A stretch of DNA of 45,992 nucleotides from Eubacteriales bacterium (GCA_045645605.1 JAZRJC010000043.1:1-45992), one strand, 5' to 3'. Shown: positions 14,472 through 27,287, counted from the stretch's first letter. Numbers and translations are program-made. The notes: generated by a model from the sequence alone, not told the origin.

Positions 14472-15779
14472 TTATTTATCCATAAGGCAGCTGATACCGG
14501 GAAGGTCCTTGCCCTCGAGGAATTCAAGTGAAGCGCCGCCGCCTGTTGAGATGTGAGTGATTCTGTCTGCAAAGCCGAGCTGCTCGCAAGCCGCCGCAGA
14601 GTCACCACCACCAACGATAGAGATGCAATCCGAATCAGCAAGAGCACTTGCTACCGCCATTGTTCCCTTTGCAAGAGTGGGGTTCTCAAATACGCCCATC
14701 GGGCCGTTCCAGATAACTGTCTTTGCTGTCTTTACAGCGTCGGCATAAAGCTTAATAGTCTCTGTTCCGATGTCAAGTCCTTCCATATCTGCAGGAATTT
14801 CATTTGAAGGAACTACCTTCACGTCAATAGGAGCGTCGATAGGATCGGGGAAGCTTTCAACAACCGTTGTGTCAACGGGGAGAAGGAGCTTAACGCCCTT
14901 CTTTTCAGCCAAAGCCATCATATCACGGCAGTAATCAACCTTTTCAGAATCGAAGAGGGACTTACCGATGCCGTAGCCCTTAGCCGCGAGGAAGGTATAA
15001 GCCATACCGCCACCGATGATAAGTGTATCAACCTTTTCGAGAAGGTTGTTGATAACGTTGAGCTTATCAGAAACCTTCGCACCGCCGAGAATTGCAACGA
15101 AGGGACGCTCGGGAGCCTCAAGAGCCTTACCCATAACGCCGATTTCCTTCTGAATGAGGTAACCGCAAACTGCAGGAAGATAATCAGCAACGCCTGCTGT
15201 TGACGCGTGAGCTCTGTGAGCCGCACCGAAAGCGTCGTTTACGAAAATGTCTGCCATTGACGCAAGCTCTTTTGCAAGGTCTGCGCCGTTCTTTTCTTCT
15301 CTTGCGTCGAAGCGAGTGTTTTCAATGAGAACTGCCTCGCCGGGCTTGAGAGCTGCAACCTTTGCCTTAGCGTCGGGGCCGATAATGTCCTCAGCAAAAG
15401 TTACCTTATCGCCAAGAAGCTCGTTAAGTCTGTCTGCAACGGGCTTGAGAGTAAGCTTCTTCTTGTCGCCCATAGCCTTTTCGAGATATGCTGCTGTTGC
15501 TGCTGCCTGCTCTGCCTCGGGAAGAGCTGCAACTGCCTTCTTTTCCTTCTTTGTAAGACCGAAGCCCTCTGTGAAGATATTATGAGGCTTGCCCATGTGT
15601 GAGCAAAGAATAACCTTTGCGCCATTTTCAAGAAGATACTTGATTGTGGGGAGAGCACCGATAATTCTCTTGTCACTTGTGATCTTGCCGTCCTTCATAG
15701 GAACGTTAAAGTCGCAACGAACAAGGCAGGTTTTGCCGGCAACGGCAATGTCTTCAATGTTTTTCTTGTTGTAAGTCAT
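14472..15779 (-). CDS. pgk: Phosphoglycerate kinase, 435 aa (about 40 aa longer than typical)
   Basis: The sequence contains [21 protein letters not shown] and GGGDSAA. An Ala/Lys/Glu-rich insertion follows SHMGKP (residues about 66-108). Confidence 0.93.
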
Positions 15780-21534: not shown

Positions 21535-22233
21535 TCACTCAAAATTATATGCCTCAGGCGGAAAAAGACTCCACGGAAAAAGCTCCGTGTCGGGAATCTT
21601 CCTTACCGTTATTCTCTCACGTTTTCCACAGGGAAGCGTCAGAGAAATCGACGCCGACGCAAGTCCTATTGCGTGGTTTTTGATTCTGTTATCCGAGCCT
21701 CCGTATTTTCCGTCCCCTAAAATCGGCATTCGTCGGGAGGAGAACTGTACTCTTATCTGGTGCGTCCGCCCCGTATAAAGCCTTATCCTCACAAGCGAAA
21801 CAGGTGTCCCGTCTGCCTCGTCGATGACACTTGCCATAAGCTTATACGAAAGCCTCGCCTCCTTCACCCTCGCACGCATACGGTCAACCACAAAGGTTTT
21901 GTTTATTCGCGAATCGTGGTAAAGAAGGTCAGTGTGCTCTCCCTCCTTGTCGGGCAAGCCCTTTACCACCGCAAAATATTCCTTTACGCAATCGTCCTTA
22001 TCAGAAAAAGCCGCCTGCAGCACCCCTGCCGTTTTTTTGCTCTTCGATACGAGCATAACTCCCGAAACGCCTCTGTCAAGGCGGTGAATAAGCGAAAGCT
22101 CCTCTTTTTTTATCTGCCTTTCCTCTTCAATGAGAGAAAGAAGGTCGGGCGCGCTTGTTCCGTCGCCTTGCGACAGCACCCCCGCGGGCTTATAGCAAGC
22201 TATTACATTTCTGTCCTCAAGCAATATTTCCAT
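21535..22233 (-). CDS. RluA family pseudouridine synthase, 232 aa
   Basis: The catalytic motif is HRLDRGVSGVML, and the GRTHQIRVQ motif is also present. There is no S4 domain (short form). Confidence 0.88.
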   Translation of the reverse strand: MEILLEDRNVIACYKPAGVLSQGDGTSAPDLLSLIEEERQIKKEELSLIHRLDRGVSGVMLVSKSKKTAGVLQAAFSDKDDCVKEYFAVVKGLPDKEGEHTDLLYHDSRINKTFVVDRMRARVKEARLSYKLMASVIDEADGTPVSLVRIRLYTGRTHQIRVQFSSRRMPILGDGKYGGSDNRIKNHAIGLASASISLTLPCGKRERITVRKIPDTELFPWSLFPPEAYNFE

Positions 22234-22386
22234 AAGCTTCGCCCCCTTCGTGATTTAAGAAAATTATATCACACGGACAGACCAAAGTCAATATTCTCGA
22301 AGGACAATTTCTGCCTTCCAAAATATAACGAAAAGAAAAAAGCTGAAGAATAAATAAACTTTTTACAAAAATATTACAAAAAACTC

Positions 22387-22415
22387 TTGCAAAAAGCTGA
22401 AATCTGTAGTATAAT
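22387..22415 (+). promoter_or_regulatory. Sigma-70-type promoter for efp
   Basis: -35 TTGCAA (22387-22392), a 17-nt spacer, then -10 TATAAT (22410-22415). Confidence 0.55.
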
Positions 22416-22465
22416 AAAATGAAAATATTTTATGACTTAAATAAAATTCTTGGAGGATTAAAATT

Positions 22466-23023
22466 ATGGTAGTAGCTGGCGATTTCAAAAACGGCGTTAC
22501 GTTCGATATGGACGGACAGGTTATGCAGGTTATTGAATTCCAACACGTAAAGCCCGGTAAAGGCGCAGCTTTCGTTCGTGCAAAAGTTAAAAACGTTATC
22601 ACAGGTGCTGTGATCGAAAGAACCTTCAACCCCACCGATAAGTTCGAGAACGCTTACATCGAAAGAAAAGAAATGCAGTATTCTTACGACGACGGTGACC
22701 TTTATCACTTCCTTGACACAGAGACTTGGGAGGAAACTCTCGTTGCTCACGACAAGGTTGGCGATAGCTTTAAGTTCGTTAAGGAAGAGATGCTCTGCAA
22801 GATCATTTCTTATAAGGGCAACATCTTTGACATCGAGCCCCCCACATTCGTTGAGCTTGAGGTTACTGAAACAGACCCCGGCTTTGCAGGCAACACAGCA
22901 ACGAACACTCTCAAGCCCGCAACTCTTGAGACAGGTGCTACAATCAAGGTTCCGCTCTTTATCAACGTTGGCGACGTTTTGAAGATTGACACCCGTACAG
23001 GCGAATATCTCTCGCGCGCATAA
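22466..23023 (+). CDS. efp: Translation elongation factor P, 185 aa
   Basis: The sequence [44 protein letters not shown] includes the KPGKG loop. A GGAGGA SD is present. Confidence 0.95.
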
Positions 23024-23112
23024 ACGCCTTATTGCTATTTGAAATTTTATGGGGAAGTTCATTTTGCAACTTCCCCTGAATTATATTAAATTAAACACGG
23101 AGGATTAAATTT

Positions 23113-23568
23113 ATGACTATTTCCGAGAAGGCTGCTTATATCAAAGGACTTGCTGAGGGTCTTGCCCTTGACGAGACAAAACCCGAGGCGAAGCTTATAA
23201 ACGAGCTTATCAATATTATCGGCGAGATGGCACAGGAGATTGCCGATCTTCACGAGGACGCTGATTACCTCAACGAATATATCGAGGAGCTCGACGAGGA
23301 CCTTGGTGCTCTCGAAGAGGACTTCTATGATTGCGACGACGAATGCGGCTGTGGCTGTGGCTGCGATTGCGACTGTGGCTGCGATTGCGACTGTGACTGC
23401 GATTGTGACTGCGATTGTGGTTGTGGTTGTGATTGCGACGACCTTGATTGCTATGAAGCGACCTGCCCCGCTTGCGGAGAGGACGTTTGCTTCGATTCTT
23501 CCATCGACCCCACGAATCTCACATGTCCCGCTTGCGGCGAAAAGTTTGATTGCGAAATCGAGGAATAA
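23113..23568 (+). CDS. Small acidic Cys-rich protein: helical N-domain, (Cys-Gly/Cys-Asp)x16 tract and two CPACGE zinc-knuckles, 151 aa
   Basis: A GGAGGA SD lies 7 nt before ATG 23113. The gene has its own terminator. There are 24 Cys in 151 residues. Residues 78-109 read CGCGCGCDCDCGCDCDCDCDCDCDCGCGCDCD. The C-terminus reads CPACGEDVCF...CPACGEKFDC. Confidence 0.85.
   Translation: MTISEKAAYIKGLAEGLALDETKPEAKLINELINIIGEMAQEIADLHEDADYLNEYIEELDEDLGALEEDFYDCDDECGCGCGCDCDCGCDCDCDCDCDCDCGCGCDCDDLDCYEATCPACGEDVCFDSSIDPTNLTCPACGEKFDCEIEE
23344..23439 (+). repeat. In-frame (TGY-GRY)16 tandem repeat encoding the Cys-X tract
   Basis: The tract is 96 nt. It contains nested exact duplications: ggctgt x2 (23347-23358), ggctgcgattgcgactgt x2 (23359-23394), gactgcgattgt x2 (23395-23418) and ggttgt x2 (23419-23430). 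Confidence 0.9.
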
Positions 23569-23576
23569 TAAAAAAC

Positions 23577-23606
23577 AAAGGCGAAGGTTTAACCTTCGCC
23601 TTTTTG
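23577..23606 (+). terminator. Rho-independent terminator after the Cys-rich protein gene
   Basis: Stem ggcgaagg (23580-23587) pairs with ccttcgcc (23593-23600), followed by TTTTT. Confidence 0.7.
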
Positions 23607-23610
23607 AAGG

Positions 23611-23641
23611 GAAAAGGGCGGATTTGATATCCGCCCTTTGT
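23611..23641 (-). terminator. Hairpin terminator after glyA
   Basis: Stem gggcggat (23616-23623) pairs with atccgccc (23629-23636). On the minus strand it is followed by TTTTCCC. It lies 8 nt beyond the glyA stop. Confidence 0.55.
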
Positions 23642-23643
23642 TT

Positions 23644-24882
23644 TTATCTGTTGTAAATCGGGAACTTCTCGCAAAGAGAAATTACTTCCTCGCAAACCGC
23701 GTCGCGCTTTGCGTCAAAATCAAACATCACGTCGTGGATAAAGCCTGCAACCTTCAGCATTTCAGCCTCACCAAAGCCGCGAGAGGTTATTGCGGGGGTG
23801 CCGATACGCAATCCGCTTGTGATAAACGGACTTCTGGGGTCATCAGGGATAGCGTTCTTGTTGGCTGTGATATGCACCTCGTCAAGACGGTGCTCAAGCT
23901 CCTTACCCGTAAGCTCAAGATCGCGAAGGTCAAGAAGCATAAGGTGGTTGTCGGTACCGCCCGACACCAGCTTTACGCCCTTTTCCATAAGAGCCGTTGA
24001 GAGCACGTTTGCATTCTTAACAACCTGACGCGCGTAAGCCTTGAAATCGTCAGAGAGAGCCTCGCCGAGAGCAACTGCCTTTGCGGCGATAATGTGCATA
24101 AGAGGGCCGCCCTGTGTTCCGGGGAATATAGCCTTGTCGATCTGCTTTGCAAGCTCTTCACGGCAGAGAATAAGACCGCCGCGAGGGCCACGAAGCGTCT
24201 TATGAGTCGTTGTTGTAACAACGTCTGCATAAGGAACGGGATTCGGATGCTCGCCTGCCGCAACAAGACCTGCAATATGAGCCATATCAACCATAAAATA
24301 TGCGCCAACCTTGTCGGCAATTTCACGGAATCTCTTGAAATCTATAACACGGGGATATGCCGACGCTCCTGCAAGAATAAGCTTCGGCTTATGCTGGAGA
24401 GCCAGCTTTTCAACCTCATCGTAGTCGATAGTCTGCGTTTCACTTGAAACGCCGTAGGGAACGATGTTAAAATACTTACCCGAAATATTTACGGGTGAGC
24501 CGTGGGAAAGGTGGCCGCCATGTGCCAGGTTCATAGAGAGAACCGTGTCGCCCGGCTCAAGAAGAGCAAAGAATACGGCAAGATTTGCGTTTGCTCCGCT
24601 GTGAGGCTGAACGTTTGCGTGCTCCGCACCAAAAAGCTTTTTAGCTCTCTCGCGCGCGATCTCCTCAACCTCGTCAACGTAAACACAGCCGCCGTAGTAT
24701 CTCTTTCCCGGATATCCCTCGGCATACTTGTTTGTCAAAACTCCGCCCGCCGCCAAAAGAACGGCCTCGGATACGATATTTTCACTTGCGATAAGCTCGA
24801 TGTTCTGACGCTGACGGCAAAGCTCACGCTCGCAGGCTGTGGCAACGTCGGCATCAAAATTCTTCAAATCCTCAAAAAACAT
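23644..24882 (-). CDS. glyA: Serine hydroxymethyltransferase, 412 aa
   Basis: The sequence contains [16 protein letters not shown] and the PLP site [23 protein letters not shown] is present. Confidence 0.95.
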
Positions 24883-24976: not shown

Positions 24977-25546
24977 TTAATTATTGTATCCCAAGTCGAA
25001 TGCCTTTTTGTTTATCTCAACAAACTGCGGCTTTACGCTCTTCTCAATAGCGGATATCCACTTCTCATAAGGGATATCGAGATACTTTGCAAGTCTGCCC
25101 ATAAGAACGATATTTACGCTCTTGACGTTTCCTGCACTCGTTGCAAGAGAAAGTGCGTCAATGGCGTCAACCGATACGCCCTTTGCAGAAAGCTCACAAA
25201 GAATAGTGTCGGGATATTCGGCAGCACCCGTGATTACGGGCATAGGCTCGATTTTCTGTGTGTTTACGATAATTTTACCGTCAGTGGCAAGACAAGCTGC
25301 GTGACGTGCCGCCTCAAGCTTCTCAAAGGAAACGATAAAATCAGCCTCGCCCTCGGCAATTATGGGGGAATAAACCTTCTCGCCGTATCTTACATAGGTA
25401 ACGACAGAGCCGCCGCGCTGGCTCATTCCGTGTACCTCGCTTACCTTAACGTCATATCCTTCGTCGGTAAGAAGAGCACCGAGAAGCTTACTTGCAAGAA
25501 GGCTTCCCTGACCGCCAACTCCGACAATCATTACATTTTTAACCAT
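24977..25546 (-). CDS. iorB: Indolepyruvate:ferredoxin oxidoreductase subunit beta, 189 aa
   Basis: Taken from ORF 24977..25630. I start it at ATG 25546, 1 nt after the iorA stop, with GGAGGA inside the end of iorA. The N-terminus MVKNVMIVGVGGQGSLLASKLLG is typical of the gamma/IorB-type domain. Confidence 0.85.
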   Translation of the reverse strand: MVKNVMIVGVGGQGSLLASKLLGALLTDEGYDVKVSEVHGMSQRGGSVVTYVRYGEKVYSPIIAEGEADFIVSFEKLEAARHAACLATDGKIIVNTQKIEPMPVITGAAEYPDTILCELSAKGVSVDAIDALSLATSAGNVKSVNIVLMGRLAKYLDIPYEKWISAIEKSVKPQFVEINKKAFDLGYNN

Positions 25547-25547
25547 A

Positions 25548-27287
25548 TTATCTATCCTCCCCAACTTCGATAGCGCCAATCTTGCACATCTGCGTACAAA
25601 CATCACAGCCCACGCACTGTGTAAAGTCAACGCAGGCCTTTCCGTTCTTCATACTGATCGCAGGACAGCCTATCTTCATGCACATCTTACAGCCGATACA
25701 TTTTTCCGTGTTGATCTTAACGGGGGACTTCGCCTTTACGTATTTAAGAAGCATACAGGGTCTTCTTGAGATGATAACCGAGGGCTCGGGAGCAGCAAGC
25801 TCCTCTACCACCGCCGTCTCACATTCGGCAAGGTTATAGGGATCAACCACTCTTACTCGCTTGATACCGATTGCACGGCAAAGCTCCTCAAGGTTCACCG
25901 CCGCCGCAGGCTCACCCTTAATGTTGTAGCCCGTCGTGGGGTTCTGCTGGTGGCCCGTCATACCCGTAATTGAGTTATCAAGAATAATTACGGTTGAATT
26001 TGAGCCGTTGTATGCGATATTGACAAGACCCGTCATACCCGAGTGCATAAAGGTCGAATCACCGATTACGCAAACAGTCTTCCCCTCGCTCTCAGCTCCG
26101 CCCGCCTTATTAAAGCCGTGGATACCCGACACAGACGCACCCATACAAAGAGTTGAATCAAGGGCGTTGAGGGGTGCGGCGCTTCCGAGCGTGTAGCAGC
26201 CGATGTCACCGAGAACGGTGATCTTCTTCTTTGAGAGTATGTAGAAAAGACCTCTGTGAGGACAGCCTGCACACATAAGCGGAGGACGAACGGGGATAGG
26301 CGAATCTGCCGATCTTGATTCTGGAAGAGGCATGCCAAATGCCGCCCTTATCGTCTTCTGATTAAATTCGCCGATAGGAGAGAACATCTCCTTACCGATA
26401 CAGTCTATGCCGAGATTTTTAACGTGAGATTCGATAATTCCGTCAAGCTCCTCGATAACGTAGAGCTTCTTTACGCCTGCCGCAAAGTCGCAAATAAGCT
26501 TCTCGGGAAGAGGATTTACGATACCGAGCTTCAGAACAGAAACTGTGTCACCGAATACCTCCTTCACATACTGATAGCAAGTTCCCGAGCAAATAATACC
26601 GATATCAGCTCCGCCTGCCTCAACTCTGTTAAGCACACTTACGTCGCCAAGAGCCGCGAGCTTCTTCGTTCTTTCCTCAACGAAGGGGTGACGGCGGATA
26701 GCGTTTGCGGGAGCCATAATAAACTTCTGCGGATTTTTTTCGTATGTAGGGAGTGCCTTCTCTTGTCTTTCGCCAAGCTCAACAGCTCCCTGTGAATGAG
26801 CAATTCTCGTGCAGATACGGACGATTACGGGTGTATCGTATTCCTCCGAGATGTCAAACGCCGCCTTGACAAACTCCTTTGCCTCGCTCGAATCGGATGG
26901 CTCGAGCATAGGAACCTTTGCCGCAATTGCGTAGTGTCTTGAGTCCTGCTCGTTCTGGGACGAGTGCATAGCGGGGTCGTCGGCTACGAAAATAACCATA
27001 CCACCGTTAACTCCCGTATAGGAAAGGGTGAAAAGAGGGTCTGCCGCAACGTTAAGACCTACGTGCTTCATAGCACAAGCCGTTCTTACTCCGCGAAGAG
27101 ACGCTCCGAAGGCAACCTCACAAGCAACCTTTTCGTTGGGTGCCCATTCGCAGTAGATTTCGTCGTATTTTGCCGCAAATTCGGTGATTTCGGTAGAGGG
27201 TGTTCCGGGATAGCTTGATACTACCTTCGCACCTGCTTCATAAAGGCCTCTTGCAAGAGCCTCATTACCAAGCATCAATTTTTTCAT
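25548..27287 (-). CDS. iorA: Indolepyruvate:ferredoxin oxidoreductase subunit alpha (TPP plus 2x[4Fe-4S]), 579 aa
   Basis: The N-terminus is GNEALARGLYEAGAKVVSSYPGTPSTEI. The TPP motif is GDSTFMHSGMTGLVN. The C-terminal ferredoxin motifs are CIGCKMCMKIGCP and CVGCDVCTQMC. Confidence 0.88.
   Translation of the reverse strand: MKKLMLGNEALARGLYEAGAKVVSSYPGTPSTEITEFAAKYDEIYCEWAPNEKVACEVAFGASLRGVRTACAMKHVGLNVAADPLFTLSYTGVNGGMVIFVADDPAMHSSQNEQDSRHYAIAAKVPMLEPSDSSEAKEFVKAAFDISEEYDTPVIVRICTRIAHSQGAVELGERQEKALPTYEKNPQKFIMAPANAIRRHPFVEERTKKLAALGDVSVLNRVEAGGADIGIICSGTCYQYVKEVFGDTVSVLKLGIVNPLPEKLICDFAAGVKKLYVIEELDGIIESHVKNLGIDCIGKEMFSPIGEFNQKTIRAAFGMPLPESRSADSPIPVRPPLMCAGCPHRGLFYILSKKKITVLGDIGCYTLGSAAPLNALDSTLCMGASVSGIHGFNKAGGAESEGKTVCVIGDSTFMHSGMTGLVNIAYNGSNSTVIILDNSITGMTGHQQNPTTGYNIKGEPAAAVNLEELCRAIGIKRVRVVDPYNLAECETAVVEELAAPEPSVIISRRPCMLLKYVKAKSPVKINTEKCIGCKMCMKIGCPAISMKNGKACVDFTQCVGCDVCTQMCKIGAIEVGEDR

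Follow-up and report, generated by a model that had tools for sequence, protein, structure and literature searches.

A CD1247-family gene downstream of efp encodes an uninterrupted run of 16 Cys-X dipeptides in a Eubacteriales genome

In this work, we describe a gene located directly downstream of efp, the gene for elongation factor P (EF-P), in a 45,992-nt stretch of DNA from a Eubacteriales bacterium (GCA_045645605.1, JAZRJC010000043.1:1-45992; hereafter "the window", which means the whole stretch that was analysed). The open reading frame (ORF) 23113..23568 (+) starts with an ATG and encodes a protein of 151 aa (hereafter the window protein), with a mass of 16.4 kDa and an isoelectric point (pI) of 4.05. 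The protein contains 24 Cys (16%), 26 Asp, 21 Glu, 5 Tyr and 3 Phe, and an exact look-up of its sequence returned no record. A preliminary description of this gene had drawn attention to a long series of Cys-Gly and Cys-Asp dipeptides in its product. The pair formed by efp and the gene under study is flanked by a divergent gene for an RluA-type pseudouridine synthase and by a convergent glyA.

The locus and the domain plan of the window protein

The two genes and the parts of the window protein are as follows.

22466..23023 (+): efp (elongation factor P), 185 aa, with the loop KPGKGAA and a Lys-type tip, recognized by domain matches
23113..23568 (+): CD1247-family gene, from the ORF call, the translation and the NF045650 match
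23113..23331 (+): N-terminal two-helix domain (aa 1-73), CD1247_Nterm, from the NF045650 match, AlphaFold2 and the invariant columns
23344..23439 (+): (Cys-Gly/Asp)x16 tract, (TGY-GRY)16, a disordered, slippage-prone, Cys-enriched acidic linker, from the sequence, the model and an indel
23449..23553 (+): predicted C-terminal 4-Cys zinc ribbon, CPACGE at C118/C121 and C138/C141, plus the clade-specific C126 and C147, from the alignment and the model

Residues 3-72 of the window protein cover all 70 positions (1-70) of the NCBIfam model NF045650, "CD1247 N-terminal domain", with a score of 81.6 bits (the cutoff being 30) and an E-value of 4.6e-23, and the same model was matched by all 47 members of a set of diverse relatives. 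By this profile match, the window protein is a member of the catalogued CD1247 family, and an extreme member rather than a new kind of protein. What the preliminary description had called a coiled-coil-like acidic domain is the catalogued CD1247_Nterm. Its helix-prone character over residues 1-73 was borne out by AlphaFold2, which places helices at residues 3-16 and 24-72 with a predicted local distance difference test score (pLDDT) of 87-96. The Pfam search of the window protein gave below-cutoff coiled-coil noise only, and Pfam holds no model for the N-domain.

In the C-terminal region, AlphaFold2 builds a beta-hairpin ribbon with strands at residues 113-117 and 124-128. Positions G12, G16, D61, D63, L64, E68, C118, C121, C138 and C141 are invariant across the 47 diverse members, and P119 and P139 are conserved in at least 90% of the same alignment. 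Of the two CPACGE knuckles, to which three Cys each had been assigned, the invariant C118, C121, C138 and C141 stood, whereas C126 and C147 turned out to be clade-specific extras rather than core ligands. Judging from the alignment and the model, the C-terminal region of CD1247 proteins is a predicted 4-Cys zinc ribbon. Zn_ribbon_4 was matched by 23 of the 47 relatives, and the window protein had no Pfam ribbon match at E<=0.1.

A full-length search of 5.8 billion proteins yielded 5,039 relatives, and a search with the N-domain only, run against 1.84 billion representatives at 50% identity, yielded 1,797 at E<=0.001. Foldseek against the PDB found nothing at E<=0.001, the top matches being Rpo12/RpoP ribbons, none of them significant, and the PDB sequence profiles gave coiled-coil and generic ribbon matches that were likewise not significant (Rpo12/RpoP, eS27, LysW, the Trx2 N-terminal finger, HVO_2753 and Dph3/Kti11). 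Two labels attached to relatives in databases were rejected. The frataxin-like CyaY label (Joint Genome Institute, JGI; P0270/P0271) had an hhalign probability of 0.08% against a manually entered sequence of E. coli CyaY, and Frataxin_Cyay was not among the Pfam matches listed; the "AraC family transcriptional regulator" label (NCBI; P0366/P0367) had no supporting domain match. The literature search found no paper on the function of the CD1247 family or on Cys-Asp repeat tracts, in agreement with the earlier statement that no characterised function was known, and the view that this is not an enzyme-like protein is also supported.

The Cys-X tract and its variation among relatives

Between the N-domain and the ribbon, residues 78-109 of the window protein read CGCGCGCDCDCGCDCDCDCDCDCDCGCGCDCD, which makes 16 unbroken Cys-X dipeptides. 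The DNA at 23344-23439 confirmed both the 16 Cys-Gly/Cys-Asp dipeptides and their encoding as (TGY-GRY)16. Shuffling the window 200 times gave (TGY-GRY)n runs of at most 3, as against the 16 observed. The tract holds 16 Cys in 32 residues (17 with C74) and 15 overlapping CxC motifs, with zero aromatics, and AlphaFold2 leaves residues 75-108 disordered (pLDDT <50). Its codons are mixed, with a TGC:TGT ratio of 8:8 and a GAC:GAT ratio of 5:5.

Exact tandem duplications with periods of 6 (23347-63 and 23415-31), 18 (23355-95) and 12 nt (23392-419) were located by Tandem Repeats Finder and an exact-match scan, so that the duplications of 6, 18, 12 and 6 nt noticed earlier do exist. When the same codons were reshuffled within the C-x lattice, however, the 18-nt duplication, which is exactly periodic over 41 nt, was the only one to go beyond chance, being clearly non-random (p=0.004); the 12-nt duplication was marginal (p=0.06), and the 6-nt ones were expected by chance (p=0.39).

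A conspecific contig from another metagenome (L085) shares the gene order of the window and, over 5.6 kb, 97.1% nucleotide identity. The orthologous protein encoded there is 147 aa long and has 14 dipeptides, with a clean 12-nt deletion that corresponds to 23367-23378 of the window. The other differences in the tract are 3 synonymous changes and one Asp-to-Gly replacement, the Cys codons being untouched, and outside the tract the two proteins are identical but for E151D. Two DNA scans of JGI metagenomes for further conspecific alleles gave zero matches. In eight clusters of relatives at >=90% identity, the lengths of the N-domain and ribbon are constant and the linker varies by CD units, examples being linkers of 29/34/38/41, 32-42 and 47/49/53 residues. 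The anticipated length polymorphism between strains, in multiples of 6 nt, is thus seen both in the 12-nt indel and in the CD units of the clusters, and the proposed growth of the tract by in-frame duplication is supported by the 18-nt duplication and the indel. Taken together, these sequence comparisons show that the tract expands and contracts by replication slippage, this strain having the longest run seen.

Tracts at the same position are widespread. Of the 120 closest relatives, which are 43-62% identical, almost all have runs of CD, CDCD, CCD or CG between the N-domain and the ribbon, and CD-type tracts also occur in most of the 80 species genomes obtained from a genome scan; the earlier remark that no other protein with this dipeptide tract was known therefore does not hold. 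Linker statistics were collected for 232 distinct full-length relatives, a sample biased towards the close relatives and the clade of the window. Linkers span 16-95 aa (median 38), and Asp makes up 36% of their residues, Cys 20.5% and Glu 16%. The D/E share among relatives is 34-74%, and Lys or Arg is found in just 6 of the 232 linkers. Linker Cys are absent in 15 relatives, number 1-3 in 18, 4-9 in 118 and >=10 in 81, so that 199 have at least four. A Cys cluster outside the ribbon is present in 227 of the 232 relatives and missing from 5; in 22 relatives whose linker has none, it sits in the C-terminal tail. The alternating Cys-X run of the window protein, at 16, is the longest of this sample, the next longest being 10.

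A fixed-spacing motif, CxG[DN]CxxCxx(x)C (e.g. CDGDCDSCEYDC and CDGNCAACDEDC), recurs in 79 of the 232 linkers and in 6 tails and looks like a discrete 4-Cys module shifted between linker and tail. The relatives bearing it include L001, L004, L007, L012, P0125, L037, L075 and L011, and the window protein does not contain it in exact form. Distant members keep the domain plan with D/E/Y linkers, and the ancestral design is therefore an N-domain, a poly-acidic linker and a ribbon. The Cys enrichment, which arose through TGY-GAY/GGY repeats, is an elaboration in the Oscillospiraceae, Ruminococcus and "Eubacteriales" gut/rumen genomes nearest to the window.

The enrichment is specific for the family, since the other window genes contain 1.8% Cys vs. 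20.5% in the linkers, and sixteen other acidic low-complexity segments from the same ~600 kb of related loci contain 0% Cys vs. 11.8% in the acidic segments of the CD1247 family. The mixed codons, this family-specific enrichment and the unaltered Cys codons in the conspecific contig show, at the level of sequence, that the constraint acts on the amino acids (Cys) and not on the DNA repeat.

These data bear directly on the main rival to a metal-binding role of the tract, namely that the tract is a spacer only: a neutral, hypermutable linker that need only be negatively charged and flexible. Its Cys residues would be harmless in the reducing cytoplasm of strict anaerobes and multiplied by slippage, with no specific metal chemistry. 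Such a spacer would be expected to be disordered, as the tract is predicted to be, to drift rapidly in length (16-95 aa) and composition even inside 90%-identity clusters, and to have Cys-free D/E/Y counterparts in distant members; moreover, basic residues are found in only 6 of 232 linkers, and Y, F and G, the common residues besides C, D and E, are single-nucleotide neighbours of the TGY/GAY codons. Yet a spacer does not account for the complete lack of Cys (0%) from the other acidic segments in these loci, for the recurring fixed-spacing 4-Cys motif, for the reappearance of the Cys cluster in the C-tail and its absence from just 5 of 232 relatives, or for the zero Cys-codon differences between conspecific alleles despite synonymous change. 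We consider this explanation unlikely.

Another group of explanations, according to which the tract is a mis-assembled or non-coding repeat, or the protein is a precursor of a ribosomally synthesized and post-translationally modified peptide (RiPP) with SCIFF/ranthipeptide-like Cys-Asp cross-linking or a LysW-type amino-group carrier, is effectively refuted. Repeats are error-prone in assembly, and the database relatives P0130, P0133, P0157 and P0259 are frame-shifted at the tract; but the tract joins two conserved domains in frame, at 96 nt it is shorter than a typical sequencing read, similar tracts occur in hundreds of independent assemblies, and a second assembly of the same species has the tract with a clean 12-nt indel. 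The RiPP precursor was rejected for a protein of 151 aa that has two conserved folded domains and efp as the sole conserved neighbour, and in the loci examined no conserved radical S-adenosylmethionine (radical-SAM) maturase or ATP-grasp ligase accompanies the gene, which argues against both the RiPP and the LysW assignments. For LysW, Zn_ribbon_LysW does match 15 of the 47 relatives and the window protein does end in Glu; a LysW-style attachment site is nevertheless ruled out because the C-terminal residue varies, both between strains (E151D) and among relatives.

Many further database entries (P0193, P0205 and others, besides the four just named) are also frame-shifted or cut off within the acidic or Cys tract or shortly beyond it, and P0259 is an out-of-frame read-through from efp into the CD1247-family gene. 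The repeat is a hotspot of assembly or gene-calling errors, or possibly of real frameshift variation. An overlapping ORF in the +2 frame (23240..23656) was dismissed as a by-product of the repeat.

Linkage to efp and local expression signals

The efp product in the window matches EFP_N, EFP and Elong-fact-P_C, so that efp is genuine, and 89 nt separate its end from the start of the CD1247-family gene. In all 80 species genomes from the genome scan, efp lies directly upstream of the CD1247-family gene on the same strand, with a gap of 9-213 nt (median 64.5), whereas the other neighbours in the window, glyA and rluA, are present in none of these 80 loci. The same position of efp was found in six of six distant members and in the conspecific contig, which brings the total to 87 of 87 loci and bears out the synteny with efp in Clostridia that the preliminary description had mentioned. 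The genes downstream in the six distant loci are spoIIIAA-AE (twice), TraB, rnc followed by a radical-SAM gene and smc, and metK, one contig coming to an end. The radical-SAM gene, two genes downstream, is seen in Romboutsia only. Across the loci examined, no conserved neighbour encoding a radical-SAM, ATP-grasp or other modifying enzyme was found. The gene order and the spacer features described below allow us to conclude that efp and the CD1247-family gene form a predicted operon, with efp as the one conserved neighbour.

The names agree with this order. CD1246 is EF-P in C. difficile 630 (PMC3933415), and the namesake CD1247 therefore bears the next locus-tag number after efp. A gene described as "downstream of efp" in enterobacteria, sugE (PMC12623156), is irrelevant to the CD1247 family. 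In Thermovenabulum and a related lineage (L081 and L087), the order is M24 peptidase, efp, CD1247-family gene and spoIIIAA-AE. In B. subtilis, this slot between efp and spoIIIAA is taken by yqhV, an unrelated membrane protein gene.

Every complete partner EF-P has the loop KPGKGAA, identical to that of EF-P from B. subtilis, where Lys32 is 5-aminopentanolylated through a pathway known only in part. One could imagine that the CD1247 protein is an accessory of EF-P maturation, its ribbon and Cys cluster binding Fe or Zn and serving as an electron donor or metallochaperone for an enzyme that modifies EF-P Lys32, in analogy to Dph3/Kti11, which serves the radical-SAM step of diphthamide synthesis on eEF2. 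The strict adjacency to efp across the class and the Lys-type loop in all complete partners are consistent with such a role, and DPH3/Kti11 chains are among the weak PDB sequence matches (E=0.005-0.02). When the family profile was compared with a manually entered yeast Kti11 sequence, hhalign aligned both knuckles over 40 columns with a probability of 49%. However, this likeness is weak and typical of short zinc ribbons, RpoP, eS27, LysW and Trx2 matching equally well, and the CSL motif is absent, the window protein having CPACGE instead. Furthermore, no conserved modifying enzyme stands beside the pair, the genes downstream being different from locus to locus (glyA, spoIIIA, rnc, TraB, metK). 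A maturation accessory is, in our opinion, quite improbable.

The signals around the pair in the window are listed below.

22387..22415 (+): sigma-70-like promoter candidate TTGCAA-17-TATAAT, 5' of efp, 10/12 consensus, matched by consensus only
23051..23076 (+): intergenic hairpin GGGGAAGTT...AACTTCCCC, without a T-run and not a canonical terminator, from RNA folding
23099..23104 (+): Shine-Dalgarno sequence GGAGGA, 8 nt 5' of the ATG, from the sequence
23577..23639 (no strand assigned): two back-to-back terminator-like hairpins, between the CD1247-family gene (+) and glyA (-), with one T-run per strand

The promoter candidate likely drives efp plus the CD1247-family gene; the spacer between the two genes contains no promoter-like site on the + strand, all + strand candidates of the window lying 5' of efp. 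Both genes have the ribosome-binding context GGAGGATTAAA in common, the near-identical surroundings being GGAGGATTAAAATTATG for efp (22448-22468) and GGAGGATTAAATTTATG for the CD1247-family gene (23097-23115). The spacer folds with -19.5 kcal/mol (z=-2.6). Just as in the window, spacers of 60-100 nt fold stably in many relatives; other relatives have spacers of 9-25 nt, and in roughly one in four of the 80 a spacer of <=25 nt includes a Shine-Dalgarno sequence. An Rfam scan of 22200-23750 gave sub-threshold matches only. One of them, to the caiA RNA motif at 23043-23115 (+), is centred on the hairpin 23051-23076 and reaches 27.1 bits (E=0.06), the gathering score being 55.5; it is probably just a hairpin.

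Among the gene signals noticed earlier, the GGAGGA and the distance of 89 nt from efp stood, and the gene's own terminator narrowed to the hairpin 23613-23639, whose T-run is on the + strand. The hairpin 23577-23603 (read 23603-23577) is probably that of glyA, because its T-run sits on the - strand.

Elsewhere in the window, a Cys-rich match at 15426-15515 (+) was considered as a second Cys protein and rejected, being an antisense frame of the - strand gene 14472..15779, which from a reading of its translation appears to encode phosphoglycerate kinase. Two genes of the indolepyruvate/pyruvate:ferredoxin oxidoreductase type, 25548..27287 (-) and 24977..25630 (-), overlap by ~80 nt (25548-25630) if each is taken to begin at its earliest possible start codon; translation of the downstream one probably begins at a later site.

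A possible role and comparison with known systems

We tentatively favour a combined reading, in which the Cys/Asp tract binds a thiophilic metal in a metallothionein-like manner, and a conserved function related to EF-P, or at least co-regulated with it, resides in the N-domain and the ribbon. The tract and the equivalent clusters in relatives would provide thiolate and carboxylate ligands for several ions of Zn2+, Fe2+ or a different thiophilic metal; such a site would be disordered when empty and compact when metal-loaded, and slippage would tune how much metal it can take up. The core EF-P-linked function of the family would lie with the conserved N-domain and ribbon, and the protein as a whole may serve the efp operon as an accessory that binds, buffers or senses metal, and not as an enzyme. 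The metal role gains some support because the Cys enrichment is family-specific and because a cluster turns up in the C-tail where the linker has none.

Several points weigh against this reading. The linkers of Romboutsia sp., Thermovenabulum gondwanense, Syntrophomonadaceae and Clostridium sp. are mostly Cys-free (D/E/Y) in proteins of the same plan and the same efp linkage; the tract is therefore an add-on, on which the core function of the family cannot depend. The number, spacing and position of Cys vary widely inside 90%-identity clusters, which is atypical of a defined cluster-binding site, and the linker statistics carry the sampling bias mentioned above. Metallothionein families are not among the Pfam matches listed for the window protein or the 47 relatives. 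In the literature searched, metal-binding, expression or phenotype data for any family member were not found, and gene order is the sole ground for a link with EF-P.

The acidity of the protein might also be read in another way. As an acidic chaperone or nucleic-acid mimic, it would bind basic partners, such as ribosomal proteins or RNA-binding surfaces of the ribosome or the EF-P site, with Cys being incidental or a redox switch. The pI of 4.05, linkers that are 34-74% D/E with almost no K/R, the invariant D61, D63 and E68 of the N-domain and the position of the gene in a translation-factor operon fit this idea. However, it is built on composition alone and leaves the family-specific Cys enrichment unexplained, and the searches run found no homology to a known chaperone or mimic. 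We regard it as very unlikely.

A bolder form of the favoured combination of metal binding with an EF-P-related function can also be imagined. The CD1247 family might be a missing EF-P partner in Clostridia, required for its maturation or regulation, and in gut/rumen Oscillospiraceae a hypervariable, metallothionein-like Cys/Asp module might couple EF-P function, or the metal supply of the translation apparatus, to metal/redox status, with slippage varying the capacity from strain to strain. This is a long shot.

In other bacteria, efp neighbours such as epmA/epmB and earP encode EF-P-activating enzymes, and to our knowledge nothing is known of EF-P partners in Clostridia. The tie with efp across at least four clostridial lineages is a strong gene-order hint and thus a worthwhile lead on clostridial EF-P biology. 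If the tract does bind metal, it would represent a new sequence class of bacterial metal-thiolate protein. It is, moreover, a natural coding microsatellite that alters the number of Cys between strains of gut anaerobes, which is unusual in a coding region. On present evidence, the window gene is an extreme yet ordinary member of a large catalogued family, and the points on EF-P and metal remain leads.

Among known systems, anaerobes have small Cys-rich proteins of the FmdB family or associated with FeoB, in which low-complexity C-x2-3-C tails are joined to a zinc ribbon or a membrane anchor. Their spacing is similar to the CxGxCxxCxxC of the relatives described here, a likeness that we take as a lead only; the families and gene contexts are different. 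Generic 4-Cys zinc ribbons and rubredoxin-like knuckles share with the window protein a pair of CPxC(G) knuckles that are carried on beta-hairpins and spaced by 16 residues; however, none of them matches the window protein significantly, its context supports none of their functions, and it has neither the C-terminal motif of LysW nor the CSL motif of Kti11.

The tract itself resembles metallothioneins, being 50% Cys, CxC-rich, aromatic-free and predicted to be disordered without metal, whereas the whole protein, with 16% Cys, 5 Tyr and 3 Phe, does not have such a composition. Unlike in metallothioneins, the tract is enclosed in a three-part protein of ~16 kDa with two folded non-metallothionein domains, the partner residue is mainly Asp and not Lys, Ser or Gly, and the number of Cys is unstable between strains. 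The closest resemblance is to the CD1247 namesake branch (Romboutsia and others), which has the same N-domain, the same plan (N-domain, acidic linker and zinc ribbon) and the same position after efp, but a linker that is mostly Cys-free where the window protein carries its 16 Cys-X dipeptides.

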